Source: Clostridia bacterium | Lineage (GTDB): Bacteria > Bacillota > Clostridia > UBA1381 | Direction of reading: 5' to 3' | Assembly: GCA_045577675.1 (NCBI GenBank) | Contig: JAZNIV010000001.1 | Span: forward strand, 1 to 63,069 | Length of the DNA stretch: 63,069 nt | Shown here: positions 4,419 to 62,508 of the stretch, piece by piece | Numbering within the stretch: the stretch's first letter is position 1 | Layout: each line of letters begins with the position of its first letter | Program-made: the position numbers and the translations under genes | Notes under the pieces: model-generated | Database searches by the model: none | What the model saw: only the letters and a program-made list of their open reading frames with translations | Told to the model about the DNA's origin: nothing

Positions 4419-4486
4419 GATGTACGCCTTTCTTAAAAGGTTTCTGTATTATATTTGTACTTTTTATATCTACTCCTGTTACTGTT

Positions 4487-7300: not shown

Positions 7301-7395
7301 AATTTAATCCTCACTTTCTATAACAATACACAGTATCGTGAAACAATATTTTCAACAATATCAAACATTATTTTTAATACCTTATATCATGTTAA

Positions 7396-10887: not shown

Positions 10888-10913
10888 TATTATATATTTC
10901 CTCCATCTTTAAG

Positions 10914-14360: not shown

Positions 14361-14399
14361 TCTCCTGCACTAAACATGTGATATATTTATATGCATACT

Positions 14400-42535: not shown

Positions 42536-42555
42536 TTTATTCTTTATATAAAACT

Positions 42556-43635: not shown

Positions 43636-44386
43636 CACATACCTCCTTAAGGAAACCAAAGGTTTCTTCATCCGGCTTTGTTGCTCTGTATTCAAGTCCG
43701 ATATATCCGTCATACTGCATTTTGTTGATTTCATTTAAAATACTTACATAATCAACAATTCCTGTTCCGGGCTCGTGTCTTCCGGGAGCATCCGCAACAT
43801 GAAAATGACCTATTAATGATATATTTTTCCTTATTTGCTCAATGGAAAAATCACCTGTCATATTCTGATGGTAAATATCATAAAGCATCTTGATATTCGG
43901 GCAATCCGCTTTCCTTATAAGCTCAAATACAGGCTCTGCATAAGGCATTGAATATCCGACGCGGTCGGTGCAGTTGAGCGGTTCTATAACGAGCGTTATG
44001 TTCTGCTTCTCTATAATCGGTTTTGCCGCCTCAAGACATTTTAAAATATTTTCCTCGTTATACTCTGCATTTTCTCCTATAAGAACAATCATTGCTTTTG
44101 CGTTAAGCCTCTTATAAACCGGAATACTTTCCTCCAGTGCATTCAGAAAATCCTCTGTCCTTCCGTCATTCAATATTCCCCGCGACAAGTCAAATGACAA
44201 ACTCTCATTGCTGCTGTCAATATTGAATACTGACACATTCATGCCGCTTTGGACAATTTTGTCTATATCCTTATTTGTCCACTTCCAGAATTCTATTGTA
44301 TCTATACCGGATTTTTTCACCTTTTCCGGGCGGGCATAAAAATCACAGTATGAGAACATCATATCAATGCATACACTCAACTTCAT
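43628..44386 (-). CDS. Xylose-isomerase-like TIM-barrel protein (sugar phosphate isomerase/epimerase or hydroxypyruvate-isomerase-like)
   Basis: 252-aa ORF. IEFW, LVIEPLN, HFHVADAPGRHEPGTG and GLEY are typical metal/barrel motifs of this family. Confidence 0.75.
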   Translation of the reverse strand: MKLSVCIDMMFSYCDFYARPEKVKKSGIDTIEFWKWTNKDIDKIVQSGMNVSVFNIDSSNESLSFDLSRGILNDGRTEDFLNALEESIPVYKRLNAKAMIVLIGENAEYNEENILKCLEAAKPIIEKQNITLVIEPLNCTDRVGYSMPYAEPVFELIRKADCPNIKMLYDIYHQNMTGDFSIEQIRKNISLIGHFHVADAPGRHEPGTGIVDYVSILNEINKMQYDGYIGLEYRATKPDEETFGFLKEVCDV

Positions 44387-46805: not shown

Positions 46806-47204
46806 TTATGCTGCAAATTTGCTCCTTCCTTTAGAAAGAATTTGTCTGCACGCAATTTCAAATTCACTAAGTTTTACAAAGTTATTCTGTCCGCCGGTAT
46901 AATCATGTGTATTTTTTGCCTCACGCACAAGAACATTGTTATACCAGTTTTTGTCATATCTCACATCACCGATACTGAAATACATACACCGGTTGTCCTC
47001 GCTGCATATAAAGCCGGAAATCTCATAATACCCTCTGATAAAAACTTTCAGCATATATCCGCTGTCCTTAAGCTGGGCATTGATTTCTGACCGTATATTT
47101 ATTGCAAATTTCACATAATCCTTTGCCGGTCTGTTCTCAATCGGTTCAAAGTTATAGTTGTGCCACTTTTCAATATTTTTTGTCTTATACATTTCTTCCT
47201 CCAT
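46806..47204 (-). CDS. Hypothetical protein (mobile element)
   Basis: 132-aa ORF. The likely start is the second Met (47192) behind GGAGG. Ends in ...SKFAA. Confidence 0.6.
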   Translation of the reverse strand: MEEEMYKTKNIEKWHNYNFEPIENRPAKDYVKFAINIRSEINAQLKDSGYMLKVFIRGYYEISGFICSEDNRCMYFSIGDVRYDKNWYNNVLVREAKNTHDYTGGQNNFVKLSEFEIACRQILSKGRSKFAA

Positions 47205-48081: not shown

Positions 48082-49062
48082 TTACGCCGCCAAACCATAA
48101 AGCTTCGAGCCCTGCACATTCAATTTCAGCTGGTCTCGCATACCCTCAAGCAGCGTAAAGTTTTCGTCTATTCCTGATAAATTCTGTTTTAAAAGACTTT
48201 CGTACTCTTTCTTTTTCCTCTGCAGTTCTTCGATTTTCAGCGACCAGCGGTCCAGTATACGCTGTGAGCTGTTACCGTTTCGTATGAGCCTTGAAATATT
48301 TTTCTGATATTCCTCAATCTCGCGGCCCATATCAAAATAGAACTCATGCGCCATTTTCTTCCTCTGTGTTTCATCGTCAGCTACATACATCGAATTTGAG
48401 CTGATATATTTTGCATTTCTGCCATCCGCATAAACAAACAGATTTTCCTTTGCCAGCAGTTCAAAAAAGGTTTCAAGAAGGTCTATCTTATGCATATAGT
48501 CCTTTGGCACAAAATAGTGATGGCCTTTGGCTGAAATGCTGATTGCATGCAGTGACGCCATATACTTTTCAACCATATTTTCAATGCTGCTGTTGGAAAC
48601 GCAATCACGATAAAGGGAAAAACGATTGTTTGCCTCATCAAAATATTGAATAACCCTGCTGTCACGGCAAAGGTCATAACCTGAAAGCTGCATTATACCC
48701 ATTTCCTTATCAAGCGTAATATTAGCAAGCTTTCGGTAATTATTTGTACTGTTCATCAGTGTTTCTTCAACAAGTTCGCGCGACAGAATATTGTTGTCAC
48801 CGCGTTTGTTATCGCGGCAATAAATTTTGAGCACTTCATTTCCCTCCTGCTCAATCCTGTCATAAATATTGCTTGTTGCACTTTTGAACGCGTCCGTGAT
48901 CGACCCTTTTTCTGAGACACTAACGGGGAATCCTATCTGTTCGCATATTTCCTTTACTCTTTCCGTTTTCACAATAAGTCTTGGGAAAGAATAATACATA
49001 TACTTTCCCATAATCTCCGACTGCTGACCGTTCTCTGTGTTAATAATCATAAATTTAGACAT
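48082..49062 (-). CDS. Hypothetical protein with a C-terminal coiled coil (mobile element)
   Basis: 326-aa ORF, ends in ...LYGLAA. No motif recognised. Confidence 0.6.
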   Translation of the reverse strand: MSKFMIINTENGQQSEIMGKYMYYSFPRLIVKTERVKEICEQIGFPVSVSEKGSITDAFKSATSNIYDRIEQEGNEVLKIYCRDNKRGDNNILSRELVEETLMNSTNNYRKLANITLDKEMGIMQLSGYDLCRDSRVIQYFDEANNRFSLYRDCVSNSSIENMVEKYMASLHAISISAKGHHYFVPKDYMHKIDLLETFFELLAKENLFVYADGRNAKYISSNSMYVADDETQRKKMAHEFYFDMGREIEEYQKNISRLIRNGNSSQRILDRWSLKIEELQRKKKEYESLLKQNLSGIDENFTLLEGMRDQLKLNVQGSKLYGLAA

Positions 49063-49081: not shown

Positions 49082-50143
49082 CTATGCTGCTCTTAGCCGC
49101 AGTTTTTTTGCAGCCATATAGTCGTCTATGCCGTTATAGCGCGGGTTCCAGTTATATTCTGTATACTCCACACCCATATCAGCAAGACAATCTTTTATTC
49201 TTTCGACAGCAGCTTGTACATTTACGTTTTTTCGTTTATCCATATCAAGAACAAGATTTACCCTTTTAATATCCATATCAGATATCGTTCCGGCAAGGTG
49301 GTCTACTGCATTCACTCCGGGAACTGCAAGAAACAGCTTGCCGCCTGACAGCACACTTGAAATATCGCCTTTCATCGGTCCCTCAGTCAGATATGCTGTT
49401 TTTGAAGATGTGTCTCCGACAACATGAACCCAGCTTTTTACACCTGTTCCTCCCGGATAACCGTTGGTCGAAAACCAGCGAAATTTCTTACCTTCGCCGC
49501 TTGCCGGATCGAGCCGAACCTGCAAGCCTTGAATGTACCCATCCTTATCGCACACCGGTATCAGGATTCCGCCGTATTTGTTGATATACATTTTCCGGCA
49601 GCCGTCTTTATCCCGGTAAAAGCCCGGGATACCGTCAAGATCGTGCTTTTTTTCCAGCTCCTTTATCACCCTTTCCCGATATACGGACTCCATCGGCATA
49701 CTTTTATACATAAACCTATAGATCTCGTTAAAGGTCAGTCCCCTGTTAATAAGATTGTTATAGTGTTTGGGATGAAGTTTTAACATATTTAATAGGTCAT
49801 AATAAACATTGTGCCGCTCTTTAAGACTTCTTATCGGTTTTTCAGGTTCCGGACAGACAGCAGGTATCGGCTCGTCATTATAAAGCCGCTTTAAAGTTTC
49901 ATAAGTCTCTTTATTACTCAGTCCGTAAATCTTGGCATAAAGCGAAACGCTGTTGCCCTTTTCATTACACCGAAAGCAGTGGAACTGCTCCTTTGCTCGA
50001 TTGAGTCCGAGATGGTATTTGCTGTCGCCGCAGAAGGGGCATCTCGCCTTAAACTCTGCACTGCGGCTTTCATACTGATACAGCTTTATACCGCAGCGCT
50101 TCGCAACCTCAATAATATCAAAGCTCATATATTCACACATCAT
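49082..50143 (-). CDS. DNA primase-like protein (CHC2 zinc finger plus Toprim-like domain)
   Basis: 353-aa ORF. CPFCGDSKYHLGLNRAKEQFHCFRCNEKGN aligns with the DnaG zinc finger. Toprim-like TEGPMKGD and VLDMDK. ATGA overlap with the upstream gene. Confidence 0.8.
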   Translation of the reverse strand: MMCEYMSFDIIEVAKRCGIKLYQYESRSAEFKARCPFCGDSKYHLGLNRAKEQFHCFRCNEKGNSVSLYAKIYGLSNKETYETLKRLYNDEPIPAVCPEPEKPIRSLKERHNVYYDLLNMLKLHPKHYNNLINRGLTFNEIYRFMYKSMPMESVYRERVIKELEKKHDLDGIPGFYRDKDGCRKMYINKYGGILIPVCDKDGYIQGLQVRLDPASGEGKKFRWFSTNGYPGGTGVKSWVHVVGDTSSKTAYLTEGPMKGDISSVLSGGKLFLAVPGVNAVDHLAGTISDMDIKRVNLVLDMDKRKNVNVQAAVERIKDCLADMGVEYTEYNWNPRYNGIDDYMAAKKLRLRAA

Positions 50144-51861
50144 GCTGCCTCCTTCATCTGCTGTCCGGTTTTTGCCTGCACAGTCAGCGGCATACGTTTT
50201 GCAAATGCAAGTATGACTTGATTGGACATAGCATCAAGACCTGCTGTGATACTCTCTGCATTATCTATGTAGGTCGGATAACAAAGGCCGGTGAGGTTCT
50301 GTAAAAGCTTAGACACCTCCAGTCCCGCCTTGATTTTCTCTGAGTTTGATATCCAGCGATAGTCCTTGCCGTCATAGGTGAAACGGAACGTATCCTTGAT
50401 TTCGCCCGTGGATTTAACCACCTCAAAAAGCCGTATTGCCGCGTGATTCATTTTGAGCTTTGACAAGGTGATTTCGGCACGTTTTGCTTCATACTCCTGC
50501 AATGCAGCAATGATTTTTTGAAGCCCGGAAATCTGTTCAAAAAGCGCTGTATGCTGATTCTCCAACTTTTCAATCGTCTGCATTTCCTTCTCCGTATTGC
50601 ACATAGCCTCAACTTTCGCAGAATAAATTTCTATCTGCTTTTGCAGTTCTGAAAGTTCTTTGTACTCTTGTTCGGAAAGATTTCCACGGCTGATTTTGCT
50701 GTCTTGTGCGTCTGCATTTTTCAAACTGTCGATCTCTGACTGAACTTTTTTAATATCGTCCGCCTTATACTTCTCAAAAACAGCCATGCTCTGCCTATCC
50801 ATTTCTTCAAGCTTTCTGACAGCTTCTCTGGCAAGCTGTCCCTCCTCCCGCACTGCAAGAACGTCTTTTTTGAACGCAGCGATTATCTCCCTGATATTAT
50901 CCTCGGTAATCACTGTACGGCAGGTAGGACATACTTTGCCCACCTTGAGATTTGCAGCCTGTGCCTCGTATGATTTATATTTCTGCGCCAGAACATTGAG
51001 CTCCGTTTTTGCCTTCATAAGCTCTTTTGTGTACTTTGACTCATAGCCTTTTGCCTTTATCTCGGCAAGCTTTTGATAAAGCTCCTGTATTTGGAAAGCG
51101 TTTCCGGTCTGGGGTTTTGCTTTCATCGCTTCTATATCAATTCCCCGGTACTGTTTTTCCTCCAGTTCATTTTTACGGTTTACAAGACTTTCAAATTCCT
51201 TGATAACGGAGTCAATAGTATTCTCCGCCTCTGAAAACCGTTTTTTGAGTGCGTCTATCTGCCCTTCCAGATGAAGTGCATTTTCATTCAGCTCACGAAT
51301 TTCTCTCCGCTTATCCTTTATACACACTTCAGGTTCGGCAAAATCCTCCGCCTCCAGCAAAGTTTTAGAGATTTCACTCAAGCGGTCAAGTATCTCATTT
51401 TTCGGAATACCCGGCATGAGTTTTTGCAGAAATTCTTTTCCGTCGCCCGCCAGCTTTTCAATAAAATACAATGGGTTAAGAATTGACAGAAAGACATTTT
51501 TCTCCGCAAACACCGATGCCATATCCACCTGACGCATACTGTGCCCGTCAAGCATCGCTGATGACTCGGAGCCTGATTTTGTACGCAAAAGATTGTGTAC
51601 CTCTCCGTTTTCATCGGCAAAACACACCTCGACCGACATTTTATCAGCATTTGGATTTTTCAGCCTGTCACATGAATTCTCACCCCAAAAGGGTGTTCCG
51701 CAGAATGCAAAGCTTATCGCGTCGGCAATAGTAGTCTTTCCTTCGCCGTTTGCGCCTATAATATATGTCACCTTATTCATATCCGCTTCATATGGCTCTA
51801 AAAAACGTTTGAAACCCTCCATTTTCACTTTTAAAATAGTAATTTCTTTAATTTTGTCCAT
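50140..51861 (-). CDS. Rad50/SbcC-like AAA ATPase with a coiled coil and a CxxC hook
   Basis: The track ORF extends to 51891. The likely start is MDKIKEITILKV (51861) behind GAGGAGG. Walker A GANGEGKTT, mid-coil VCPTCRTV and C-terminal YIDNAES. Confidence 0.75.
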   Translation of the reverse strand: MDKIKEITILKVKMEGFKRFLEPYEADMNKVTYIIGANGEGKTTIADAISFAFCGTPFWGENSCDRLKNPNADKMSVEVCFADENGEVHNLLRTKSGSESSAMLDGHSMRQVDMASVFAEKNVFLSILNPLYFIEKLAGDGKEFLQKLMPGIPKNEILDRLSEISKTLLEAEDFAEPEVCIKDKRREIRELNENALHLEGQIDALKKRFSEAENTIDSVIKEFESLVNRKNELEEKQYRGIDIEAMKAKPQTGNAFQIQELYQKLAEIKAKGYESKYTKELMKAKTELNVLAQKYKSYEAQAANLKVGKVCPTCRTVITEDNIREIIAAFKKDVLAVREEGQLAREAVRKLEEMDRQSMAVFEKYKADDIKKVQSEIDSLKNADAQDSKISRGNLSEQEYKELSELQKQIEIYSAKVEAMCNTEKEMQTIEKLENQHTALFEQISGLQKIIAALQEYEAKRAEITLSKLKMNHAAIRLFEVVKSTGEIKDTFRFTYDGKDYRWISNSEKIKAGLEVSKLLQNLTGLCYPTYIDNAESITAGLDAMSNQVILAFAKRMPLTVQAKTGQQMKEAA

Positions 51862-51896
51862 AAGCTTCCTCCTCTTAAAATATGATTGCACCGTTA

Positions 51897-52667
51897 TTAA
51901 GCTGCTATATCATAACCCGTTATTATGTTATATGCTCCGGCTTGATTTTTTCCCTTTCGTATCCGCACATTCGTAATTCGTGTACCGTTTTGAAGCCGAT
52001 TGTCCACGCCTTGCATATATGCCTTATAGCGCGTCCCATCGCGGCTTAGTATCAGTGCGCTGTTTTCATCACGCACCTCAACTGCATTTACTTCAAATAC
52101 AGGATGATCTTCTGTCGTTTTAGACTTCGTATTATCTGTCTGTTTTGGTTTGTCGGACGCTGCGTTTGAGAATAGTTTATCAACCGTTTTATTATATATC
52201 TCTGTCAGCTTTTGCTGTCCGCTGTCGGTAATATAGTAGGTTCGTCCCCACTGCTTAACCGATACATTTTCTGCATTGAATTTATACAGATAGCGTCCGA
52301 TATTCCATTTGACAGCACATCTTTTGAAGGAGTCAGACAGTCCGCCCTTGACAGGCTCATGCTCTGTATTCTCTGCACCGTCGGTTTTGCCTATCCATTC
52401 CTTCAGGTCTTCATCATAGATATATATGGTACAAAGCTGCGCATATATCGGCTTGCCTTGATCGTCTATGCCTTTCCATTCACGGTAGTCGTCCTTCCAT
52501 CGGTTTTGACCAACTACCGCGTCAAGCCTGTCGGCAATCGCGCGTGCATCCAGGTATGGTACTGCTATTCCGGTCAATTTTTCCTTATTGATATTCTGCA
52601 GCCGCCACTTTACATCGCTTGACGGAAACGGTTTGCCAAATTCCTCGAAATATTTGTTCTCAGCCAT
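51897..52667 (-). CDS. Rad52/Sak-like single-strand annealing protein
   Basis: 256-aa ORF. FPSSDVKWRLQN..VPYLDARAIADRLDAVVGQNRWKDDY resembles the Rad52/22 family N-terminus. Confidence 0.65.
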   Translation of the reverse strand: MAENKYFEEFGKPFPSSDVKWRLQNINKEKLTGIAVPYLDARAIADRLDAVVGQNRWKDDYREWKGIDDQGKPIYAQLCTIYIYDEDLKEWIGKTDGAENTEHEPVKGGLSDSFKRCAVKWNIGRYLYKFNAENVSVKQWGRTYYITDSGQQKLTEIYNKTVDKLFSNAASDKPKQTDNTKSKTTEDHPVFEVNAVEVRDENSALILSRDGTRYKAYMQGVDNRLQNGTRITNVRIRKGKNQAGAYNIITGYDIAA

Positions 52668-52676: not shown

Positions 52677-53339
52677 CTACTTCCGGTTTATAAAATCCTG
52701 CAAAGTTTGTCCGTTGGGAATAAGCACATCGGAGTAATAGAAATCCGGTTCTTTTTCCTTTAAAAATTCGAGCATCGTACGGTATTCCATATTAAGACGT
52801 GTATTCTGCGGCGTATAGTAGTCGTTGTTATCCGGCATTGTAAAAATATAATACGGCATGTTTTCCAACTGCCACAGATACTTCACCGGCGGCAGCGCAT
52901 TACTGCCGATACACATGCTGAAATCCATAACATTTGAAAAAGGATATTTATACAGCCTTGTATCTTCCTTTAAAATTCCCATATCCGCCACCGTAACCTT
53001 AACAGATTCTACCTTCCCGTATCTGTCAAGCCAAAAGCCGTAGATAAGCCTCGGTATCGGAAAGTCCGTATACCCGGTTCTTTCATAAACCAAATTCATT
53101 CTCCTTGCTTTTAATTCCAGCGCAACAAACCGCCTTAATGTATTGGTTTCCCTATATGCAACACAGCCATCCGGCAGGACTCCGGTTTTGCACTCGGTCA
53201 TCTCCGATGACTTATTTAATATATCGCAAAAAGTATTCATATCAATAACCTTATGCTTCTTCCGCCGTCCCGCAGTATAGTCAACCTCAACATTCAGATC
53301 ATCGTTTACACAAAAATTCATTCCTATCAAATCATTCAT
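52677..53339 (-). CDS. Putative prokaryotic E2/UBC-like protein
   Basis: 220-aa ORF. Flap-plus-Cys motif YPFSNVMDFSMC(143)IGSN at about 52905-52943, similar to HPN[IV]..G.IC of E2 enzymes and to prokaryotic E2 families linked to E1/JAB. Confidence 0.45.
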   Translation of the reverse strand: MNDLIGMNFCVNDDLNVEVDYTAGRRKKHKVIDMNTFCDILNKSSEMTECKTGVLPDGCVAYRETNTLRRFVALELKARRMNLVYERTGYTDFPIPRLIYGFWLDRYGKVESVKVTVADMGILKEDTRLYKYPFSNVMDFSMCIGSNALPPVKYLWQLENMPYYIFTMPDNNDYYTPQNTRLNMEYRTMLEFLKEKEPDFYYSDVLIPNGQTLQDFINRK

Positions 53340-53947
53340 AATGCTGCCTCCAATGTTTCCGGCATATCAGCGTATTGCATTTTAAGTTCACGAAGTTTTC
53401 TTGTATATGCGTCAAAAATCGTTATCAATGCGATAACCACACCCGTCAAATTGCAGCAGCCCATGTTATAATCCAGATATATATGTATTGAGCTGGCATA
53501 TTTATGATTGATTTTTGTCCGCATATAACACCCCATTCCACCGCATATATAGCAATCAGTATTATAAAGCCATCTTTTAACAAAATCCGCCATTTCGCAC
53601 CTTTTCATTCGGTACTCCTTGCCGGATATTTGTCTATTTTTGTAGAGTTGGTACAGTCTGCGGTAATATTCGGTCATATCGGTACTTGAAAAGAAAAACT
53701 CGCTGTACAAAGCTTCGGAATCTTCATCAAAATTCCCGTTTTCATCCCGCATATATATTACCTTTTCCTTTACAAACTCCGCCGCATCATATAAATGTTC
53801 CATTTCTGTTTCATAATAGCTTTCAATATCTGCATCAAGCTGCGCATACGCTTTGGCAACACTTATCCCGCCTGCATCGTATGCCTCCTTCATAGCCTGG
53901 AGGATATTAAAAAAGGCGCTAATATCCGTGCTGCATAATTTTTCCAT
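53336..53947 (-). CDS. Hypothetical protein (mobile element)
   Basis: 203-aa ORF with an ATGA overlap with the E2-like gene. Cys-rich patch CYICGGMGC..GCCN. Confidence 0.6.
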   Translation of the reverse strand: MEKLCSTDISAFFNILQAMKEAYDAGGISVAKAYAQLDADIESYYETEMEHLYDAAEFVKEKVIYMRDENGNFDEDSEALYSEFFFSSTDMTEYYRRLYQLYKNRQISGKEYRMKRCEMADFVKRWLYNTDCYICGGMGCYMRTKINHKYASSIHIYLDYNMGCCNLTGVVIALITIFDAYTRKLRELKMQYADMPETLEAAL

Positions 53948-53956
53948 AACTGCCTC

Positions 53957-54265
53957 CTAATAGTATGTTCGTTTACCCGAAAAGATACCTTCGGCTCTGC
54001 GTATAATGTCAAACAGCTTACCGGCAGAATCCAGTTTCGGACAGATCGTTTCCTCAAAATACTCCATATAGTCCTGCAGGTCATCGCAGGTGAATTTTAA
54101 AAAATCCAAATCACCCACTTTGAAATCCTTGTCATTTACCATTTGTACTATAATGGTATCGTGCAGATACCGGAATCCCTTACTGTATTCCCTTTCTTTT
54201 TTAGGTCTACTCCTCAGCTTCACTATGCTGTCGTAGAAGCTCTGTTTATTTAATTCCATTTCCAT
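53957..54265 (-). CDS. Hypothetical protein (mobile element)
   Basis: 102-aa ORF with AAAGGAG 9 nt upstream of the ATG. Confidence 0.6.
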   Translation of the reverse strand: MEMELNKQSFYDSIVKLRSRPKKEREYSKGFRYLHDTIIVQMVNDKDFKVGDLDFLKFTCDDLQDYMEYFEETICPKLDSAGKLFDIIRRAEGIFSGKRTYY

Positions 54266-54279
54266 TACATTTTCTCCTT

Positions 54280-55638
54280 TTAAGACAATCTTTTCACTCC
54301 GTCAGCAGTCAAAATATTAAAAATCATTTTATTGACCTTGGTTTCTGTCAGCGTGTTGTTCTCGTGATCAAACCACTTTTTTGTATTCTTTACCACTCTG
54401 CCCTTTATAACGTGCGGATGGTCGCAGTCCATGTACCCATTTATCAATCCGCTTCCGCCTATCAATCCGACCTGTCCTACCGAAAGCGGCAGAAGCGGTC
54501 GCTTTTCTACAGCGTCAATGCGGCTTTGCTCAAACAACATATCAATAGATTTTGACCCGGCAAGCTGTCTTTTAAGTTCTCCCACATTAAATTCGGTACC
54601 CTTAAAGACCTCTACCTTCTTTTCCCTATCAGGAATACGGTAGGTAAGCGGTTTCAACTCCGATATAAACGGTATTTTTTCCGGCAGCATCGCATACTGC
54701 GAAAGTATTTGAGCCTGTTCGCTTCCGTCAGCTTTTGTCTTTTTTACACCGATTATTGCAATCTGTTTGAATTTTGAAAATTCCTTATCCATAAAGCGGA
54801 ATACCGAAATATTTTCGAAATTATCACAGATGATACGGCATATATCCCCTGTCAGGCGGTAGTATGGAATAACATAGATCATAATCCCGTCTGTCATAAG
54901 CTGATGAATGCTCTCGACCAGAAAGCGTTTTTCATGACGCGCTCTGCCATTTTCATTTATAACCGACAGATACGGCGGATTTAAAAACAACACATGAAAC
55001 GCTTCCGAACTGATATGCGAATAGAAATAGCTGCCAAACCCCACGCGGTCAAGGCGCGTTTCCGCTTCCTCTGCACGGCTTCTGTCAAGTTCAATACCAT
55101 ACGTAACAGCATTTTCCTGCATCGCCAGCATATTAAGCGCCAAACCGCAGCCGCAGCACGGGTCAAGCATATTGATTTTCTCTTTCGGGAACGTCAGACC
55201 GGCTTTAATCAGCTTGATATGCTCCAAGTCGGTCGGATAATATCCGAGCCGGATATTATTCATCAAGCGCCCGACTTTTGATGCGTCTGTCGTCTGTTCC
55301 GGTATCAATCCGCGCATATGCCGAACTGCTGCTATCAATTGTGTATAATCCGGCGTCATAAGGTTGAATTTCCTGACGGCCGGATACAGCTTTGCAGCAA
55401 ACTCAGCTCCGTCCTGAATATCGCATTCGCAAAAAAGAAGCCTTAGCGCCTGTACATTTTCCGTCAGTCCGGCTTTCATGCTTTCAAGCTCTTTATATAC
55501 CTCCTGCGCGCTTTTCAGATTATTTCTCCCGCGATATACCTCTATCGCATTACGCTTCACAGGCATCGCTTCAAGCATACCGTCGAGGCTCCTGCCAAGC
55601 TCTGCAAATCTTTCGAGCACATAATAACTTTCTGACAT
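54280..55638 (-). CDS. N6-adenine DNA methyltransferase (orphan; no cognate nuclease seen)
   Basis: 452-aa ORF. Motif I LDPCCGCGLAL, GIELD, and motif IV FLNPPY (residues 218-223). Confidence 0.75.
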   Translation of the reverse strand: MSESYYVLERFAELGRSLDGMLEAMPVKRNAIEVYRGRNNLKSAQEVYKELESMKAGLTENVQALRLLFCECDIQDGAEFAAKLYPAVRKFNLMTPDYTQLIAAVRHMRGLIPEQTTDASKVGRLMNNIRLGYYPTDLEHIKLIKAGLTFPKEKINMLDPCCGCGLALNMLAMQENAVTYGIELDRSRAEEAETRLDRVGFGSYFYSHISSEAFHVLFLNPPYLSVINENGRARHEKRFLVESIHQLMTDGIMIYVIPYYRLTGDICRIICDNFENISVFRFMDKEFSKFKQIAIIGVKKTKADGSEQAQILSQYAMLPEKIPFISELKPLTYRIPDREKKVEVFKGTEFNVGELKRQLAGSKSIDMLFEQSRIDAVEKRPLLPLSVGQVGLIGGSGLINGYMDCDHPHVIKGRVVKNTKKWFDHENNTLTETKVNKMIFNILTADGVKRLS

Positions 55639-55821
55639 TTACGCAGCCCTCCTGAGCTCCTGATATATATTTCTCTCAACTCTGCGTATATGTCTGGCTC
55701 GCTGCAGGTGCGGTTTTCCGTCGGCGCCGATCGTCTCAACGCTTTCCGTCACCGTTGTGACCGTTTTATCCATTGTCATAACAACCTCTTTGTTTTGGGT
55801 AAATATCATATTTTCTCTCAT
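55639..55821 (-). CDS. Small protein downstream of E1 (60 aa); role unknown, weak Ubl candidate
   Basis: The track ORF extends to 55872. I prefer MRENMIFTQNK.. (ATG at 55821) behind AAGGAG. Ends in ...ELRRAA. Its stop abuts the methyltransferase ATG. Confidence 0.45.
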   Translation of the reverse strand: MRENMIFTQNKEVVMTMDKTVTTVTESVETIGADGKPHLQRARHIRRVERNIYQELRRAA

Positions 55822-55864
55822 TTTTATTAACTCCTTTTTTAGAAATCTTTTCAGACTCATCTTA

Positions 55865-56584
55865 CTACGCAATTTTTTTCATCAGGTTTTTTCTTGCGGA
55901 AAACGCCACTCTCATGTTTTGCAAATTGCCCTCAATCAACAGGTAATACAGCATTGACACAATTGCCGCTGAAGCCATAACATTAGCAGCAATCGACTGC
56001 GGTGCGGATATACTGTGTTCAGCACAGGAAAGTTCGGACGGAAATTTTTCAATATCTGTTAAAATATCCGGATAAATACGTGCGGCCGGCTTTGAAACAA
56101 CGCGCCCGTAACGCTTTGCTCCGCATACAACCTGTCCTGTAAATTCACCGTTTCCGGAGTCGATGTAAATAAGGTTATCCATCGTGTTAAAAACATTATT
56201 GCACATTATTCTTGAACGGTTATTATCCACAGCACCAATCAGTATTCCGATAGGCTCTAAATCCCCGCTGCCTGTTTTCATACTCAGCAATTCACGCAAG
56301 CGTTCTTCGTCTTCAATATATTCGGGAACATATTCTGTTTCAATGCCGAACACACCCGAATACCTTGCCGCCATAACATTTGCTTTATTTTTGCCAACAT
56401 CATTGCCTGCAAAATTCTGTCGTATCAGATTTTTCTTTTCTACTGTGTCACCGTCTGCAATAACAATGCGTATATCCCGTTCAGACGCATATGCTATTCT
56501 GTAAAGATGCGGAATAACATATCCGCCCGTTCCGCCTGCACCTATAATAACAATATTTACAGGTCTGTCCATCTCCAGCTTCAT
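55865..56584 (-). CDS. ThiF/MoeB-type E1-like adenylyltransferase (adenylation domain only)
   Basis: 239-aa ORF. VIIGAGGTGGY, IADGDTVEKKNLIRQNF, DVGKNKA, GAVDNNRSR and IDSGNGEFTGQV. Confidence 0.85.
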   Translation of the reverse strand: MKLEMDRPVNIVIIGAGGTGGYVIPHLYRIAYASERDIRIVIADGDTVEKKNLIRQNFAGNDVGKNKANVMAARYSGVFGIETEYVPEYIEDEERLRELLSMKTGSGDLEPIGILIGAVDNNRSRIMCNNVFNTMDNLIYIDSGNGEFTGQVVCGAKRYGRVVSKPAARIYPDILTDIEKFPSELSCAEHSISAPQSIAANVMASAAIVSMLYYLLIEGNLQNMRVAFSARKNLMKKIA

Positions 56585-57888
56585 AACTGCTCCTCCTTAT
56601 GCTCGCCAACAATCGAAACAGCATCAAGCCAATAATCCGGAAAGGTATTTTTCCGCATTTCAAAAACCTCTGACGGATCTATTTCAACGAACTTGCCTCC
56701 CACCGAAATTCTTGTTCTGATCTGCGGGAAAAATTTATCCAGTCTGCCGATTACTGTATATATACGCGTTGCCTTTTCATCATCATTATCTATTTTAGAA
56801 AAGAATGCGCTCATTCTGTTATGCGAATGAATTTCCATGACAAGCGTGTATTCATCCTCAGGCAAATCCGGTAAAGCAGCCGATATTTCTGTCCCTGTAA
56901 CTCTCTGCTCAGGAACATACACCTCATATCTATGCCGCTGCTCCGACCAGTAAACCGCCGCCATCGCCTCTACTGCATAATCCTCGGTCACATAGCTTTT
57001 GAAGAAAGCGATTATCTGCTTCAAGATACACTCCGGTATCTTCGGCAAAGCCGGGATAAACCCGGCTCTTACCTTTTGATATACGTCTGCTTTTTGCGCT
57101 TTTGCAATAAACGCTCCTGCCTTCGTGTTTCTCACCTCATAAATGTTCCCATCATCAGACGGAACATAGCAAATCGCCTTTTTCTTTCCTATAGCGTCGG
57201 CAAGGCTTGTATATGCACCTTTGTATTCCGCCGCAAATCCTTTTTTCTTTGCAGCAACACAAGGCGTTATCTTGCATACAATATCCTCTTCCTTGCCGGT
57301 CTTTTTCTTGGCAAGACCATCAGTAAATTCTTTTGACTTTTCTATGTCCTTTTTAATGCTCGCAATGGTTGTTTTTTTCGGCTCTGAAATCTGCTTTGAT
57401 ACAGTACCGTACTCCACCTTCCATTTAACTGCCTGCGCATCGTCAAGCTCCGGGAAATCGTCCGACTTCTCGTATCTTAACTTATCAAAGGTAATTGAGG
57501 GATCTGCTATCTCCTCATTCGCCTTTCCGTAAACAAATACCGGCAGCTTATCCTTTAGGCTGCTCTTGATCTCTTCTGCTTTTTTCTCCTTTGCCGCGGC
57601 AACTGCTGCTTCAAAGGGATTATCGTCCTGCTCTGCGGAATTTTCTTCGGCAGCAGGCTTCGCCTCCGATATATCGGTTTGTAGGTCATTTATTTCCTCC
57701 TTCACAGGTTCAGGTGTTAATTCGGATTTGCTATTCTCCGGCGTTTTTTCCGGCTGTACGGTTTCTTTGACTTCTGATGAAAATATACTTTCCGCACCTC
57801 CGAACAAATCGTCTGCCATATCAAATCCGCTTCCCAAATCCAAATCTCCGCTTTCTCCGAAAATGTTCAAATTGTCTTTCTCCAACAT
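56581..57888 (-). CDS. JAB/JAMM metallopeptidase with an acidic low-complexity N-terminus
   Basis: 435-aa ORF. Exact HxHx7SxxD motif EIHSHNRMSAFFSKID (56788-56829). The N-terminal ~110 aa are rich in D/E/P/S. 4-nt overlap with the E1 gene. Confidence 0.85.
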   Translation of the reverse strand: MLEKDNLNIFGESGDLDLGSGFDMADDLFGGAESIFSSEVKETVQPEKTPENSKSELTPEPVKEEINDLQTDISEAKPAAEENSAEQDDNPFEAAVAAAKEKKAEEIKSSLKDKLPVFVYGKANEEIADPSITFDKLRYEKSDDFPELDDAQAVKWKVEYGTVSKQISEPKKTTIASIKKDIEKSKEFTDGLAKKKTGKEEDIVCKITPCVAAKKKGFAAEYKGAYTSLADAIGKKKAICYVPSDDGNIYEVRNTKAGAFIAKAQKADVYQKVRAGFIPALPKIPECILKQIIAFFKSYVTEDYAVEAMAAVYWSEQRHRYEVYVPEQRVTGTEISAALPDLPEDEYTLVMEIHSHNRMSAFFSKIDNDDEKATRIYTVIGRLDKFFPQIRTRISVGGKFVEIDPSEVFEMRKNTFPDYWLDAVSIVGEHKEEQL

Positions 57889-57950: not shown

Positions 57951-58283
57951 CTATGCTGCCATATCGCAAAGTGATACGGGCATTGGTGATATATGTGAAA
58001 GCCGATAATTACACCGGCTGAGTTTTTGACATATTTCCTCGCTCATATCCCTGTCGTCGGGAATGATATCGGCAAATGCGAGCGTATCGGTAATCATATA
58101 ATCAAGACTCAGTACGTGCCCTTCACGTTTCTTCTTCGCATAATAACAGGACAGAGCCGAACGCATATGGTTTTTTGCGATTGTTTCAAAGCTGTAAGCC
58201 TTCAAATCCTCACGCTCGTCGTACTCCTTGACTGCACGCAGAAACCGAAACACTACCACATCATAAAACTCTTCCTTCGGCAA
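57951..58283 (-). pseudogene. Sigma-70 region-2-like protein fragment, apparently 5'-truncated by the IS
   Basis: FYDVVVFRFLRAVKEYDEREDLKAYSFETIAKNHMRSAL resembles sigma region 2.1-2.3. The frame stays open upstream into the IS end, the track start is a TTG, and no region-4 HTH is present. Confidence 0.4.
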
Positions 58284-58288: not shown

Positions 58289-59757
58289 AGTCTGTGAAAG
58301 AATTTCTGTAAATAGTAGAAAAGCAAGGTCTTCTATGATAAAATAAAAATCATAGGAGGCCTTAAATTATGGCAAAAGAGAAGAAAACAGTACACAAAGT
58401 ACAAATGACCGAAGGGAAAAGAAACATTATCCGTCAGTTGATTGAGGAGTATGATATCGAAACAGCTACAGATATCCAAGATGCTCTCAAAGACCTTTTA
58501 GGCGGAACTATCAAGGAAATGATGGAAGCAGAAATGGATAATCACCTTGGCTATGAGAAATCAGAACGCTCCGACAGTGATGATTATCGTAATGGGTACA
58601 AATCAAAACGAATTAACAGTTCTTATGGTAATATGGATATTCAAGTGCCACAAGACCGAAAATCAACCTTTGAACCTCAAATAGTGAAAAAACGTCAGAA
58701 AGACATCTCCGACATTGACCAGAAGATAATATCTATGTATGCCAAAGGCATGACAACCAGACAGATAGCAGATATTATAGACGATATATATGGCTTTGAA
58801 CCATCTGAAGGTTTTATCTCTGATGTAACAGATAAGATACTTCCACAGATAGAAGACTGGCAAAACAGACCACTCGACGAAGTTTATCCAATCGTCTATA
58901 TAGATGCAATACACTATTCTGTTCGTGATGAAGGTGTTATCCGCAAGCTTGCTGCTTATGTAATTCTTGGTATTAATACAAGCGGTATGAAGGAAGTATT
59001 GACTATTAATGTCGGTGACAATGAAAGCTCTAAATACTGGCTTTCTATCCTTAACGAATTGAAAAACAGAGGAGTCAAAGATATCCTTGTTCTCTGCGCT
59101 GACGGACTTACCGGTATAAAAGAAGCAATCGGTGCAGCATTCCCTAAAACAGAATATCAACGCTGTATAGTGCATCAAGTCAGAAACACTCTTAAATATG
59201 TGCCGGACAAAGACAGAAAAGCCTTTGCAACTGATTTGAAAACAATATACCAAGCTACAGATGAGAGAAAGGCATTGGAAGCCTTAGAGAGAGTTACAGC
59301 GAAATGGACACCGAAATATCCCAACACTATGAAACGTTGGAAGGATAACTGGGATTCCATTTCACCAATATTCAAATTCTCAACCACCGTCAGGAAGGTA
59401 ATTTACACAACAAATGCTATTGAAAGCCTGAATGCCACATACCGCAAGTTGAACCGCCAAAGAAGCGTATTCCCGAGCGACACGGCTCTTTTGAAGGCTC
59501 TATATCTTTCAACTTTTGAAGCAACGAAAAAATGGACTGTAACCATCCGAAACTGGGGGCAGGTTTACGATGAACTAAGCATCATGTATGAAGGCAGATT
59601 GCCTGAATAATTAAAAAAACACGTCAAAAGGTGGTATGGATTTTACACTTCCTCTTGACGTGCCTAAAATTTCGTGGTATACATAAATATAGTCGATAGA
59701 TTATTTTGCGGCTTAATTAATCAAGTAATTATCATAGAAGATCTGTATTTACAGACT
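58289..59757 (+). mobile_element. IS256-family insertion sequence
   Basis: Imperfect terminal inverted repeats: left AGTCTGT..TCTGTAAATA..TCTTCTATGATAA, right (reverse complement) AGTCTGTAAATACAGATCTTCTATGATAA. They enclose a single Mutator-type transposase gene. Confidence 0.8.
58369..59610 (+). CDS. IS256-family (Mutator-type) transposase
   Basis: 413-aa ORF with a GGAGG RBS. CADGLTGIKEAIGAAFPKTEYQRCIVHQVRN is the family signature. Confidence 0.95.
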   Translation: MAKEKKTVHKVQMTEGKRNIIRQLIEEYDIETATDIQDALKDLLGGTIKEMMEAEMDNHLGYEKSERSDSDDYRNGYKSKRINSSYGNMDIQVPQDRKSTFEPQIVKKRQKDISDIDQKIISMYAKGMTTRQIADIIDDIYGFEPSEGFISDVTDKILPQIEDWQNRPLDEVYPIVYIDAIHYSVRDEGVIRKLAAYVILGINTSGMKEVLTINVGDNESSKYWLSILNELKNRGVKDILVLCADGLTGIKEAIGAAFPKTEYQRCIVHQVRNTLKYVPDKDRKAFATDLKTIYQATDERKALEALERVTAKWTPKYPNTMKRWKDNWDSISPIFKFSTTVRKVIYTTNAIESLNATYRKLNRQRSVFPSDTALLKALYLSTFEATKKWTVTIRNWGQVYDELSIMYEGRLPE

Positions 59758-60282
59758 TTATTTCATACTCTCGGTAATAGCAATAGAACTGTGGGCTAGT
59801 AGGGTTGAAATTAAGGCTATGTCATTTCCTGATATATGGTAGATTTCTGTGGCATACATTTTTCTAAAAGAATGTGTACCAACTCTTTCAAGACCTAAAT
59901 AGTCACAAACTCTTTTCAGGTGCTTTGATACACCTCTACTGCTGATATTAAACAATTTACTATCTGGTTTTATGCCATTTTCTAATGCATAGGTTTGCAT
60001 ATATGTATATATTTCTGGTGATATGGTAAATGTTCTTACTTTCTTTGTTTTCTGCTCTCTGAAATTATTAAAATGGTATCTGTTACCATCTTTGACAAAA
60101 TCACAAAGCCTTATAGAAAGGGTGTCATTTATTCTTAAACCTGTATTTGCTTGGACTACAAAAACACTTGCTATCTGCTTATTGGGATAGCATTTCCCTT
60201 TTTCATCCTCAAACCCAAAAGTTATTGTTTCTATGATTTTTTCATATTCAGATTTTTCTAATGGTCTGCATTTTTTATTCAT
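59758..60282 (-). pseudogene. Tyrosine recombinase/integrase catalytic-domain fragment that ends before the catalytic Tyr
   Basis: 174-aa ORF. TGLRINDTL (Arg), HSFRKMYAT (HxxR) and LLAHSSIAIT (His), then ...ESMK-stop. The stop codon directly abuts the IS right end at 59757. Confidence 0.65.
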
Positions 60283-60377
60283 AAAATCTATTCCTCCTAA
60301 CTAACTATTTTTCACTATTTTGTTCCTAAAAAATTAAGGGATAGTTCCTTTAATTTGTATATTTTAAGGGTATGTAT

Positions 60378-60405
60378 GAAAAACCCTTATATTTAGGGGT
60401 TTTTC
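60378..60405 (-). terminator. Intrinsic terminator after the 136-aa gene
   Basis: GAAAAACCC / GGGTTTTTC stem with a 10-nt loop and T-runs on both sides. Confidence 0.6.
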
Positions 60406-60442
60406 ATTTCCTAAAATATATCTTTTAGGAACTTTTATCTGA

Positions 60443-60853
60443 TTAAATATTATAACTGTCTAACATACTGCCTTTATCAAGAACATAAGTACAATCTAAT
60501 TCTTCAACCTTTTTCATTGTTATTGTCTTATCTTTTAATACCAAAGAATGATAGTTATGTATGCAAGTTTGAATACTGCCACCTTGTTCTGAATATACCA
60601 ACTGTTTTTTATCCCTATCAAACACCAGAAAAATGTTATCTGTAACCATATAATCTTCAGTATCTTCTTCATAAGTCATAAGGTCTGCATAGTGTATGTT
60701 TATATTGAGTTCTGGTAAATGATAAAAACTTGTAGGGCAATATATCTGATACTCATTTTCACTTTCTTCAATTACTTTACCACCCATAATATCACCAATT
60801 ATTTCTACTACTTCTCCAAGTTCATTATAAAGTTCTCTAACCTTGAATGCCAT
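60443..60853 (-). CDS. Hypothetical protein
   Basis: 136-aa ORF that overlaps the upstream gene by 17 nt. No motif recognised. Confidence 0.55.
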   Translation of the reverse strand: MAFKVRELYNELGEVVEIIGDIMGGKVIEESENEYQIYCPTSFYHLPELNINIHYADLMTYEEDTEDYMVTDNIFLVFDRDKKQLVYSEQGGSIQTCIHNYHSLVLKDKTITMKKVEELDCTYVLDKGSMLDSYNI

Positions 60854-61397
60854 AATCAGTACCCCCTTGTTTATTTATATATCTGTAAAGTGTAGTTTTG
60901 CTTATTCCTGAAATTGCTGTAATCTGTTCTACTGTCAGATTACCACTTTTATATAGTTCAATAGCCTTTTGTATATCTTTTTCTTTTGGTGGTCTGCCAA
61001 CCCTACCTTCTGCAACTGCTTTTTGATATGCAATCTGTTTTTTCTTTTCAAGCAAATGTTTATGTAGTTCCAGATATGCTTTCAGATTATTATAAAAATC
61101 TTCCCCAGAAAGAAAAGGCTCAATGCAACTGCATAATGAAATCTTTTTGTTTTTCAGCATTATAAATACCTTTATTAAATCTTCCATACTGTCAGCCAAA
61201 TCTTCAACTGACCTGACAACCAATCTGTCTTCTGGCTGAATAAGATTAAATAATTCATTCAGTTCTGTTCTTTCATTCCCATCCATATCAAAGAAAATAT
61301 TATTATCTTCTATTTCCATTTGTTCTATAAGGCTGAAAAGAGGTTGATTATTTCTCTTTTCTTCTCTATTGTTTTCTAAAACATAAGCCCATAACAT
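60837..61397 (-). CDS. Serine-recombinase (resolvase) homologue lacking the catalytic residues but retaining the C-terminal HTH; probably a DNA-binding regulator
   Basis: 186-aa ORF. WAYVLEN replaces YARVSTxxQ (Ser to Leu). VEDLAD replaces LDRLGR (both Arg lost). The C-terminus GRPPKEKDIQKAIELYKSGNLTVEQITAISGISKTTLYRYINK is a resolvase HTH_7-type motif. Confidence 0.65.
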   Translation of the reverse strand: MLWAYVLENNREEKRNNQPLFSLIEQMEIEDNNIFFDMDGNERTELNELFNLIQPEDRLVVRSVEDLADSMEDLIKVFIMLKNKKISLCSCIEPFLSGEDFYNNLKAYLELHKHLLEKKKQIAYQKAVAEGRVGRPPKEKDIQKAIELYKSGNLTVEQITAISGISKTTLYRYINKQGGTDYGIQG

Positions 61398-61667
61398 ATA
61401 ACCAACCCCTTTCCATAATCTATATAATTTTGAAACTGCTCAAAACCCTATAGGATAAATTAACTATTCAAAAGTGTCAGAAATAAGTGTTGAAAATAAT
61501 TCAACTTTTTTCCAACCCTATAATTTTTGGTAGTAAAAATAACTATAAAAGGTATGTTTAAAAATGAGTAAATTATAAAAATAAATTAAAAGTGTTGTCT
61601 ACAAATATTCCTATTATCTCTATAAGGTTTTGAAACAGTACCAAAATCTATAACATATTGGCAATCA

Positions 61668-61979
61668 TTATTTATAGGTGATTACTTCTATGTCATATAC
61701 TTTTTTTAACTTATCTACAAACAGTAGATATTCTTCTTCATTATCTGCTATATGTTTAGGTGAATAAATAAGTAAATACTGAAAATCTTTATATTCTTTT
61801 AATCTTTTCACTTCTCTTAAAATGTCCTTAACACCACCAAAGGTCACAATGCAATCTAATATTTTAATATTTGGATTTACACATTTTGTGGTAATCATTG
61901 AAACCTGATAAGCCAGAGATTTTATACTTTTCTTATCTGATTTGGTTTTAACAGCCATTACTGAATACTTCATTTCCAT
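61668..61979 (-). CDS. Hypothetical protein (faint resemblance to a degenerate resolvase catalytic domain)
   Basis: The track ORF extends to 62030. I prefer MEMKYSVMAV.. (ATG at 61979), right after the upstream stop at 61981. YLLIYSPKHIADNEEEYLLFVDKLKKVYDIEVI recalls the resolvase beta-alpha core. Confidence 0.45.
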   Translation of the reverse strand: MEMKYSVMAVKTKSDKKSIKSLAYQVSMITTKCVNPNIKILDCIVTFGGVKDILREVKRLKEYKDFQYLLIYSPKHIADNEEEYLLFVDKLKKVYDIEVITYK

Positions 61980-61980
61980 A

Positions 61981-62190
61981 TTATTCAACCCCTTCCATAT
62001 CTTCAAAGTCTGCAATATTATCACAGTCATTTGTGTACCATTTAAAATCTAACAATTCATCATATAATGTTAATTTCTGGTTTTTACTGTCAATCTCAAA
62101 ATAAATACTACTACTTTGATTTCTCATCTTCTCTAAAAACTCTACTGCATATTTGGGTATCCTGAAACTAATATTAACTTCTGTTCTCAC
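61981..62190 (-). CDS. Small protein, possibly a ribbon-helix-helix DNA-binding protein
   Basis: The track ORF extends to 62253. A GTG at 62190 is preceded by AAGAGGGGG at 8 nt. The N-terminus RTEVNISFRIPKYAVEFLEKM fits a strand-helix RHH start. Confidence 0.35.
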   Translation of the reverse strand: MRTEVNISFRIPKYAVEFLEKMRNQSSSIYFEIDSKNQKLTLYDELLDFKWYTNDCDNIADFEDMEGVE

Positions 62191-62508
62191 AACTATAACC
62201 CCCTCTTGCTTTGTGGGGTAAGTAACAGAGCCTTGCAGATTGTACCCTTTCAAACCTTGTCATAGACAGTTTAAGTAGCCAACCCTTCCCAGAATGATTA
62301 CTTACCCTCTTATAAGAATATATATCTATTTGTCCATAAAAGTTCTTTTATGTCTTGAAAAAGGTATTTATGTATGTTTTTCTTTTATATATGTTAAAAA
62401 TCACTTTTTGCCAAATAACCTTTTTGAAACATCACTATCAAAATTAAAATATTTTCCCCATAAAGCATTAAGAATATATTTTTAATATCTTCTTTTAAGA
62501 ATGGTTTT

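Follow-up and report, generated by a model that had tools for sequence, protein, structure and literature searches.

The 63,069-nt stretch of DNA analysed here, referred to as the window (contig JAZNIV010000001.1 of assembly GCA_045577675.1, Clostridia bacterium), carries what is probably a complete, diverged conjugation operon of the 6d/PRTRC type, built into a replication and recombination operon of ~11.5 kb that belongs to a mobile element of Clostridia. Operons of family 6d, which encode a ubiquitin-like protein (Ubl), an E2-like protein, a JAB peptidase and a ThiF-type E1, were described bioinformatically by Iyer, Burroughs & Aravind in 2006 (PMC1779556). They correspond to the PRTRC system (ParB-related, ThiF-related cassette; TIGR03734-03742) with the components ParB, E, C (the Ubl), F, B (the E2-like protein), A (the JAB protein) and ThiF. 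The system is common on large plasmids and islands, and 25 of 43 PRTRC papers, judged by titles and abstracts, are genome, transcriptome or unrelated reports that give no experimental function. In the variant described here the modifier and its own peptidase are most likely made as one protein, with the modifier at the N-terminus. An initial annotation of the same DNA had proposed an E1, E2-like and JAB cassette of PRTRC type on a mobile element. All open reading frames (ORFs) and motifs that it quoted (ThiF, JAMM, the E2 Cys143, ParB, methyltransferase, Rad52-family) are present at their coordinates, and the best family matches, profile-profile alignments and synteny reported below support the cassette. 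Its statement that no Ubl is obvious does not hold, and to see novelty in the Firmicute host goes too far.

The module consists of 14 closely spaced genes, all read from the minus strand, that run from position 58283 to position 46806 (Table 1; all coordinates are positions in the window). The genes encode, in this order, a sigma-like protein, the 435-aa JAB protein, the E1, a 60-aa protein, a DUF6094 methyltransferase, two conserved proteins of 102 and 203 aa (h102 and h203), the E2-like protein, a Rad52-family protein, an SMC/Rad50-like ATPase, a Zn-ribbon/DUF3854 primase, a DUF6744 protein, a ParB_N protein and a 132-aa protein (h132). Stop and start codons overlap as ATGA at the JAB/ThiF, SMC/primase and h203/E2 junctions, the first of these being the 4-nt overlap between the 435-aa and the 239-aa ORF, and they abut as TAAATG between the 60-aa ORF and the methyltransferase gene.

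By homology, the 435-aa protein is a JAB peptidase with a JAB-N region and an intact JAMM site, preceded by an acidic N-terminus of ~90-110 aa. It is matched by the Pfam model Prok-JAB at 3e-7, above the model cut-off, and its best NCBIfam match is PRTRC_A (8.5e-18, residues 270-402). Alignment of its family profile with that of proteobacterial PRTRC_A using hhalign gave a probability of 97.5% and an E-value of 9e-12 over 186 columns (residues 201-404). The JAMM motif EIHSHNRMSAFFSKID comprises residues 352-367. In the alignment of homologues E307, H354, H356, S364 and D367 are invariant, as are R253 and W314. The latter two match the conserved Arg and Trp with which the JAB-N region of the 6d family has been described (PMC1779556).

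The homology to PRTRC_A explains the 435-aa protein from residue 201 onward only, and the stretch in front of it is as conserved as the peptidase. An AlphaFold2 (AF2) model of residues 88-230, with a predicted local distance difference test (pLDDT) score of 76, consists of a helix, the elements β1-β2-α1-β3-β4, two short helices, β5 and a floppy AAKKKG tail; this succession of strands and helices is that of a β-grasp. When the model was compared with the PDB by Foldseek, ubiquitin-like or β-grasp domains made up the majority of the best 50 matches, among them the RA domain of Afadin (probability 0.91), F1 lobes of FERM domains, PB1 domains, ubiquitin of Bacteroides fragilis, di-ubiquitin, FAT10 and elongin B. 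The spacing F.F.G..DPS...[YF]PEL is common to this domain and canonical PRTRC_C, with DPS...FPEL aligned. Gly217 of the xKKG end is invariant in 23/23 aligned homologues, including the distant proteins from Thermobacillus and from a Subdoligranulum plasmid. Canonical PRTRC_C terminates in ...KG as well, and on two plasmids its copies extend past KG, so that processing at this glycine is already part of the family. Because of the predicted structure, the motif spacing and the invariant terminal glycine we regard residues 115-217 as a putative Ubl. The β-grasp modifier of 6d/PRTRC operons is thus predicted in a fused form and is absent as a separate gene. The module contains no small ORF with a Gly-Gly end, and the 60-aa ORF next to the E1 gene ends in RRAA, both as stated in the initial annotation.

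The 239-aa protein belongs, by homology, to the single-domain ThiF type of E1 found in the PRTRC clade. It is recognised by the Pfam model ThiF at 4e-16 and its best NCBIfam match is PRTRC_ThiF (1.4e-27, 96.6 bits); adenyl_thiF scores 39.6 bits and the biosynthetic ThiF and MoeB models 39.6 bits or less. The protein is not a biosynthetic ThiF. The elements GxGGxG, RQ, D.G..KA, VDN..R and a Ser-Cys pair (Cys187) are common to this E1 and seven PRTRC ThiF proteins from proteobacterial and Nitrospirota plasmids. Among 60 of the 561 matching records, the plasmid homologues from outside the Firmicutes were all annotated as PRTRC ThiF.

The 220-aa protein contains YPFSNVMDFSMC(143)IGSN, i.e. YPFSNVMDFSMC143IGSN. 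It is matched by Prok-E2_D in Pfam (4e-4), and its best NCBIfam match is PRTRC_B (1e-3). A precomputed match to PF14460 (Prok-E2_D) exists for 12 of 21 homologues, and hhalign aligned the family with PRTRC_B at a probability of 93.6% (E 2e-7, 171 columns) with the cysteines in register. Cys143, Asn136 and YPFSNV are invariant (22 homologues for Cys143 and YPFSNV). An E2/UBC-like protein had been claimed at this position. The conserved cysteine and the relationship to PRTRC_B substantiate the first half of this claim, and the UBC fold was not recovered by fold search. We therefore treat the protein as a homologue of PRTRC_B/Prok-E2_D with a conserved cysteine.

Based on these homologies, conserved catalytic residues, the predicted β-grasp and the conserved gene order we propose the following route. 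The modifier would be translated as the N-terminal half of the 435-aa protein, comprising the acidic tail, the helix and the β-grasp that ends in KKKG217. The JAB/JAMM domain would cut after Gly217, in cis or in trans, and free the carboxylate of the glycine. The E1 would adenylate Gly217 of the released 217-residue modifier and load the modifier onto Cys187, from where Cys143 of the E2-like protein would take it in thioester transfer and hand it to lysines of the targets. The freed JAB domain could reverse the modification. In this scheme the acidic N-terminus would remain joined to the released modifier. Next to its invariant Asp17-Leu18-Gly19 it shows recurring Phe and Gly positions, and it may serve as a short linear motif or in DNA mimicry.

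Several points weigh against this proposal. The scores of all three enzymes lie below the curated NCBIfam cut-offs (PRTRC_A 64.6 bits against 101.8, PRTRC_ThiF 96.6 against 144.75, PRTRC_B 18.6 against 131.45). PRTRC is nevertheless the best family for the JAB, E1 and E2-like proteins, and the proteins are homologues, not members as defined by the curated models. The E2s of family 6d have an absolutely conserved His C-terminal to the Cys (PMC1779556), and our E2 alignment has no invariant His after Cys143; the stretch aligned to the His region of PRTRC_B reads MPDNND here versus NFTHPN in Polaromonas. In the AF2 model of the E2-like protein (pLDDT 72, predicted template modelling score 0.61) the loop with the active-site Cys falls below a pLDDT of 50. 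A Foldseek search of the PDB with this model returned no UBC match, the best hits being unrelated folds at E 0.1, a search of BFVD returned two uncharacterised viral proteins only, and an HMM (hidden Markov model) search of the PDB returned no solved relative by sequence. For the Ubl model the Foldseek E-values were 0.2-0.7 and none reached 1e-3, so that the matches are not significant. hhalign gave P = 0.021 for the Ubl region against PRTRC_C, which is weak (unrelated controls 0.26-0.92), and for 18 homologues, Pfam and NCBIfam HMM scans of this region gave no match to Prok_Ub, PRTRC_C or ThiS. Finally, the cleavage after Gly217 is a step that we infer, and neither a target nor an E3 is evident.

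Part of this evidence would suit an arrangement in which the β-grasp stays on the peptidase for good as a docking or regulatory domain, comparable to the internal UBLs of eukaryotic deubiquitinating enzymes, and the 220-aa protein a non-catalytic relative of E2. The cassette would then act without protein conjugation or would use a ThiS/MoaD-like protein of the host. That the Ubl call is a prediction with non-significant Foldseek E-values, that no HMM recognises the domain and that fold search recovered no UBC fold would all be expected. We nevertheless consider this arrangement unlikely. The invariant Gly stands exactly at the domain end, in a basic KKG like the one at the free C-terminus of PRTRC_C; the 220-aa protein has an invariant Cys143 within an invariant motif, and this Cys aligns with that of PRTRC_B; and the E1 retains its conserved Cys together with the ATP-binding motifs.

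A second feature of the operon is the C-termini of its proteins. Seven of the 14 module ORFs end in Ala-Ala, compared with 0/36 of the other ORFs in the window (Fisher p = 3e-5). Across the relatives such ends are found on the Rad52-like, SMC-like, DUF6744, primase, h203, 60-aa, h132 and sigma-like proteins and often on the E1 (Table 1); all 120 of the database homologues listed for the Rad52-like protein end in Ala-Ala, mostly as YDIAA. The tails use all four Ala codons and all three stop codons, which shows that selection acts on the protein. A ribosome-binding or coupling motif such as GGAGGCAGCATGA accounts for a few junctions in the window, and the codon usage led us to reject a nucleotide-level cause as the general one. 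On the 168-kb Subdoligranulum plasmid, 7 of 167 ORFs end in Ala-Ala and 5 of these 7 lie in the module. Accessory genes that joined the operon in relatives, such as DnaN, likewise end in Ala-Ala. The residues at positions -3 and -4 before the Ala-Ala are highly variable.

Most simply, the Ala-Ala ends on the E1 and the DNA-handling proteins may be ClpX-type degrons or remodelling tags that would make these proteins short-lived. We favour this reading because the ssrA and RqcH Ala tails, which are ClpXP signals (PMC8012679), have Ala-Ala-COOH at their core, and because ClpXP degrades the SMC-like repair protein RecN of E. coli via a C-terminal signal (PMC10714372). It is drawn from analogy alone, and this counts against it. 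If it applies, a built-in instability would time the establishment programme of the mobile element. It appears doubtful to us that the ends instead function together with the E1/E2/JAB set, be it as further substrates of the E1 or by marking the targets that an E2 without E3 selects. In this case a single operon would encode a ligation machine together with its dedicated clients for DNA establishment, and ubiquitin-like chemistry would reach a set of non-Ubl clients. Of 24 long metagenome loci, 23 carry the E2-like gene alongside the DNA-handling genes, JAB and ThiF often lie outside the 10-kb flank, and two loci without E1 were found (L142 and L143 of our collection); this co-occurrence does not separate the degron from the E1-substrate idea.

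Taken further, the E1 could adenylate the Ala-Ala C-termini of the operon's own proteins, the 60-aa protein included, without any Ubl, the E2-like protein ligate them and the JAB protein reverse the ligation, as in Cap2/Cap3. In that event the Rad52-like, SMC-like, primase, DUF6744 and E1 proteins of the element would be ligated via their C-termini, as cGAS is in the cyclic oligonucleotide-based antiphage signalling system (CBASS). The confinement of the ends to the operon, both in general and on the 168-kb plasmid, their retention while the preceding residues drift, and their presence on newly joined genes such as DnaN would agree with such a direct conjugation. Some proteobacterial PRTRC ThiF proteins also end in [KR]AA (3 of 7 from proteobacterial and Nitrospirota plasmids), and family 6b offers a precedent of a non-Ubl substrate with a conserved disordered C-terminus (bioRxiv 10.1101/2022.03.31.486616). 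We regard it as improbable, however, because a predicted β-grasp modifier with a terminal Gly is encoded in the operon and makes a surrogate needless. Moreover, the variable positions -3 and -4 are unlike typical tails recognised by E1, Ala-Ala ends occur on only 12 of 109 diverse ThiF relatives, ClpX is well known to recognise Ala-Ala-COOH, and the co-occurrence counts did not separate direct conjugation from degrons.

The proposed conjugation operon is widespread and conserved in its order. The genes follow the same order in >100 Clostridia loci. This order was seen in 36 genome loci, 24 long metagenome loci, 8 IMG/VR contigs and one complete 168-kb plasmid of Subdoligranulum variabile (OY725881.1), down to ~35% identity. 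The 36 genome loci are all from Clostridia, mostly Oscillospirales-type metagenome-assembled genomes. Gut Clostridia of humans and animals carry the module in abundance: 496 homologues of the JAB and 416 of the Rad52-like protein were found at E up to 0.001, and the metagenome scan gave 546 matches to DUF6744. Homologues of the E2-like protein are encoded on 159 Firmicute megaplasmids, and B. cereus and B. thuringiensis were already included in the 6d list (PMC1779556), hence a Firmicute host is not new for such cassettes. In relatives, genes for DnaN, SSB, bpMoxR/VWA, PcfM, YqaJ, SNF2 and DUF3849 are added to the module, in some cases with a large serine recombinase. Two loci, L011 (5086-18861) and L012 (5083-18885), have only a 13.8-kb unit in common, which is 94% identical and flanked by unrelated DNA; it consists of the module and ~3.4 kb that include a HipA-like kinase gene. 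No recombinase was noticed among the ORFs of this unit, of which a single one was domain-scanned. Due to the genes added in relatives and the sharing of this unit between unrelated flanks, we conclude that the module is a mobile replication and recombination block of the establishment type and no known defence island. A phage origin was considered and rejected: one unannotated match in a phage collection and the 8 IMG/VR contigs were found, and the flank ORFs sampled from three of them contained no structural genes. L142 (on a 712-kb contig) and L143 have kept the E2-like and DNA-handling genes and lack JAB and E1. The former carries an IS110 insertion, and in the latter a truncated sigma-like gene abuts a truncated methyltransferase gene, with an AAA_14 ATPase gene upstream; both look like deletion or insertion derivatives.

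The mobile block could still carry the cassette as mere cargo for anti-phage defence, like Bil or type II CBASS, and not for the establishment or replication of the element. The characterised bacterial E1/E2/JAB systems are defence systems (PMC10557695; PMC11601603), the E1 domain weakly matches the E1-E2 (Cap2) models of PADLOC, and some relatives have toxin-antitoxin or abortive-infection genes (HipA, AbiEii) close to the module. Yet PADLOC gave nothing for the JAB and E2-like proteins and otherwise generic domain matches only, and no known effector is encoded. The three genes are not clustered; they are interleaved in a translationally coupled replication and recombination operon whose gene order is fixed across >60 loci, and canonical PRTRC cassettes also adjoin ParB, SSB, DnaN and sigma genes on megaplasmids. 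A role purely in defence is therefore quite improbable in our view. That the ThiF protein is a sulfur-transfer enzyme of the ThiF/MoeB kind with unrelated neighbours, to which the weak adenyl_thiF and MoeB matches might point, is hardly credible given the far higher PRTRC_ThiF score, Pfam scans that found no ThiS/MoaD, thiazole or molybdopterin genes nearby, and the conserved linkage to JAB and E2.

Compared with canonical 6d/PRTRC operons, the closest system known, the module encodes the same three enzyme families, each as the best match and with profile-profile support for JAB and E2. It also has in common with them the JAB-N region with its conserved Arg and Trp, a putative Ubl ending in ...KG, an E2-like protein whose Cys is conserved and which lacks the classical HPN His, a fast-evolving protein encoded just upstream of E2, and the location on plasmids or islands near ParB, methylase, SSB, DnaN and sigma genes. 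In contrast to these operons, the Ubl is not encoded by a separate gene of ~70 aa and is fused N-terminally to JAB behind an acidic tail of ~90 aa. E2 is parted from JAB and E1 by the 60-aa gene, the DUF6094 methylase gene and two unknown genes. PRTRC_E and PRTRC_F are not recognisable, the His after the E2 Cys is gone, and ParB is a short, generic ParB_N protein that reaches 72.8 bits with PRTRC_parB (cut-off 278.6). The whole set is embedded in a Rad52/SMC-like/primase/DUF6744 operon with Ala-Ala ends. The enzymology would be that expected for the family.

Further counterparts are the compact E2-JAB-ThiF cassettes of Bacilli megaplasmids such as Thermobacillus composti pTHECO01 and the 235-kb plasmid of B. 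thuringiensis israelensis, with E2 identities of 25-37% over the 159 plasmids. The Thermobacillus cassette has the same Ubl-JAB fusion, here with ...GGKKG, and the gene upstream of its E2 ends in EAA. The Bacilli cassettes differ in that E2, JAB and E1 are contiguous, no Rad52/SMC/primase/DUF6744 block is linked and few Ala-Ala ends occur.

Type II CBASS (family 6b, Cap2/Cap3) resembles the module in its E1, E2 and JAB chemistry, and there a conserved C-terminal tail is the E1 substrate. Cap2, however, is an E2-E1 fusion acting on a CD-NTase, whereas E1 and E2 are separate here and 2.5 kb apart, and Pfam, NCBIfam and PADLOC scans found neither a CD-NTase nor an effector domain in the module. 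Bil (BilABCD) and Bub systems likewise combine a separate Ubl, E2, JAB and E1. In the excerpts of the two reports on these systems (PMC10557695; PMC11601603), Ubls with extra N-terminal regions and pre-processing of the Ubl by JAB are described, and fusions of components are common. Bil has a separate Ubl gene, and here the putative Ubl is fused to JAB. The Bil E1 is a multi-domain protein (IAD, AAD and CYS), in contrast to the bare 239-aa domain of the module. The Bub fusions outlined in these excerpts are Ubl-E2 and JAB-E1, or E2-E1 with DUF6527, and a Ubl-JAB fusion with a bare E1 is absent from the architectures outlined there. The locus is no Bil, Bub or CBASS system. With regard to ClpXP signals, the Ala-Ala-COOH ends on the SMC-like and other DNA-handling proteins resemble ssrA (...LAA), the RqcH Ala tails and RecN; in contrast to them, the signal-like end here occurs on up to ~10 proteins of one operon that also encodes E1, E2, JAB and the putative Ubl.

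This variant pins the putative modifier of the family to residues 1-217 with the KKKG end, names likely catalytic residues (JAB H354/H356, E1 C187 and E2 C143) and ties the system to a fixed set of partners in DNA replication and recombination. The operon-wide Ala-Ala ends are a clean, conserved and easily mutated feature.

Table 1. Genes and domains of the module in operon order. Ala-Ala counts are of distinct C-terminal tails, with the loci from genomes (L001-L036) and metagenomes (L054-L133) taken together.
Feature	Position	Strand	Basis or remark	Ala-Ala tails
Sigma-70-like small protein, operon gene 1	57951..58283	-	weak sigma70-ECF match, E 0.0075; ends MAA	5/12
435-aa fusion: acidic disordered N-terminus, helix, β-grasp Ubl (predicted), JAB-N, JAB/JAMM	56581..57888	-		3/26
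Acidic low-complexity N-terminal ~90 aa of the 435-aa protein	57619..57888	-	invariant D17-L18-G19	
Predicted ubiquitin-like β-grasp domain, residues 115-217, end AAKKKG217	57238..57546	-	AF2, Foldseek, alignment	
JAB-N and JAB/JAMM domain	56584..57237	-	JAMM motif at 56788-56835	
Single-domain ThiF-type E1, 239 aa	55865..56584	-	Cys187 codon at 56024-56026	9/24 (17 end in Ala)
60-aa conserved protein	55639..55821	-	no family match; ends RRAA	8/12 (12/12 end in Ala)
DUF6094 NPPY methyltransferase	54280..55638	-	Pfam PF19587, E 1.7e-104	0/22
h102, 102-aa conserved protein	53957..54265	-	no family match	0/16
h203, 203-aa fast-evolving protein directly upstream of E2	53336..53947	-	alignment	12/19
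E2-like protein, 220 aa (Prok-E2_D / PRTRC_B relative)	52677..53339	-	Cys143 codon at 52911-52913	3/46
Rad52/22-family single-strand annealing protein	51897..52667	-	Pfam 5e-14; ends YDIAA	29/30
SMC/Rad50-like ABC ATPase	50140..51891	-	AAA_15, AAA_23, SMC_N matches; ends KEAA	39/43
Zn-ribbon/DUF3854 primase	49082..50143	-	family scan; ends RLRAA	18/37
DUF6744 protein	48082..49062	-	Pfam 1.9e-76; ends GLAA	50/57
ParB N-terminal-domain protein, 287 aa	47185..48048	-	ParB_N 1e-19; motif ISGHRRKRA	0/2
h132, 132-aa last module gene	46806..47204	-	homology to L002/L030 ends at its stop codon; ends FAA	4/4

Among the smaller proteins of the operon, the 60-aa protein has homologues in 13 genome loci, with tails ending in RAA, EAA or RVA; it was rejected as a candidate Ubl for want of any family match. 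In Vibrio and Shewanella plasmids (L044 5773-5997 and L047 5756-5980) a hypothetical gene of ~74 aa directly follows ThiF and occupies the same place as the 60-aa gene, and the sequences look unrelated. h102 stands where canonical operons have their small Ubl gene, and h203 where family 6d has its "alpha-helical protein". Neither has detectable homology to PRTRC_C, E or F (hhalign P 0.26-0.92), so that they are positional counterparts only. h102 was rejected as a Ubl since it has no similarity to these three families (P 0.5-0.9) and ends in an aromatic pair, which in its family is YY, FF, CY or FY after a conserved GFxYLH...DFSKFT..DL.EY..YY core. h203 was considered as a zinc-binding, E3-like protein and rejected because its cysteines are not conserved. 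The SMC-like ATPase shows a weak match to the Rad50 zinc hook around a CPTC motif (E 0.0036), which suggests a Rad50-like hook dimer. Its top matches in the defence library (LmuB, mad3) are generic.

Homology to the close relatives L030 and L002 breaks off at position 58303 upstream and 46806 downstream. Upstream, an IS256-family element (~58304-59750; transposase 58369-59610 on the plus strand, inverted repeats 58326-58341 and 59729-59744) cuts the 5' end of the sigma-like gene, whose homologues are 138-173 aa long, and parts the module from the SSB, VWA, bpMoxR, DnaN and PcfM genes found upstream in relatives. The operon in the window may therefore be without its native promoter. The region beyond the element (59758-62253) has a low GC content (28.5%) and no homology to the relatives of the module. 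It seems to be debris left by another element and contains part of a tyrosine integrase (174 aa), a resolvase-like remnant (186 aa) and small unknown ORFs. A search of the window for a tmRNA gene found none. Downstream of 46806 genes of sugar metabolism and regulators follow. The cluster at 38463-45665 encodes a PFL-like glycyl-radical enzyme with its radical-SAM activase, three GFO/IDH/MocA oxidoreductases, a TIM barrel resembling sugar-phosphate isomerases and an AraC regulator, and in the relative L037 AraC-family and GFO/IDH/MocA genes lie at a comparable place beside the end of the module. At the far end of the window, positions 1557-18098 are taken up by five consecutive, very large ORFs of 937-1232 aa on the minus strand.

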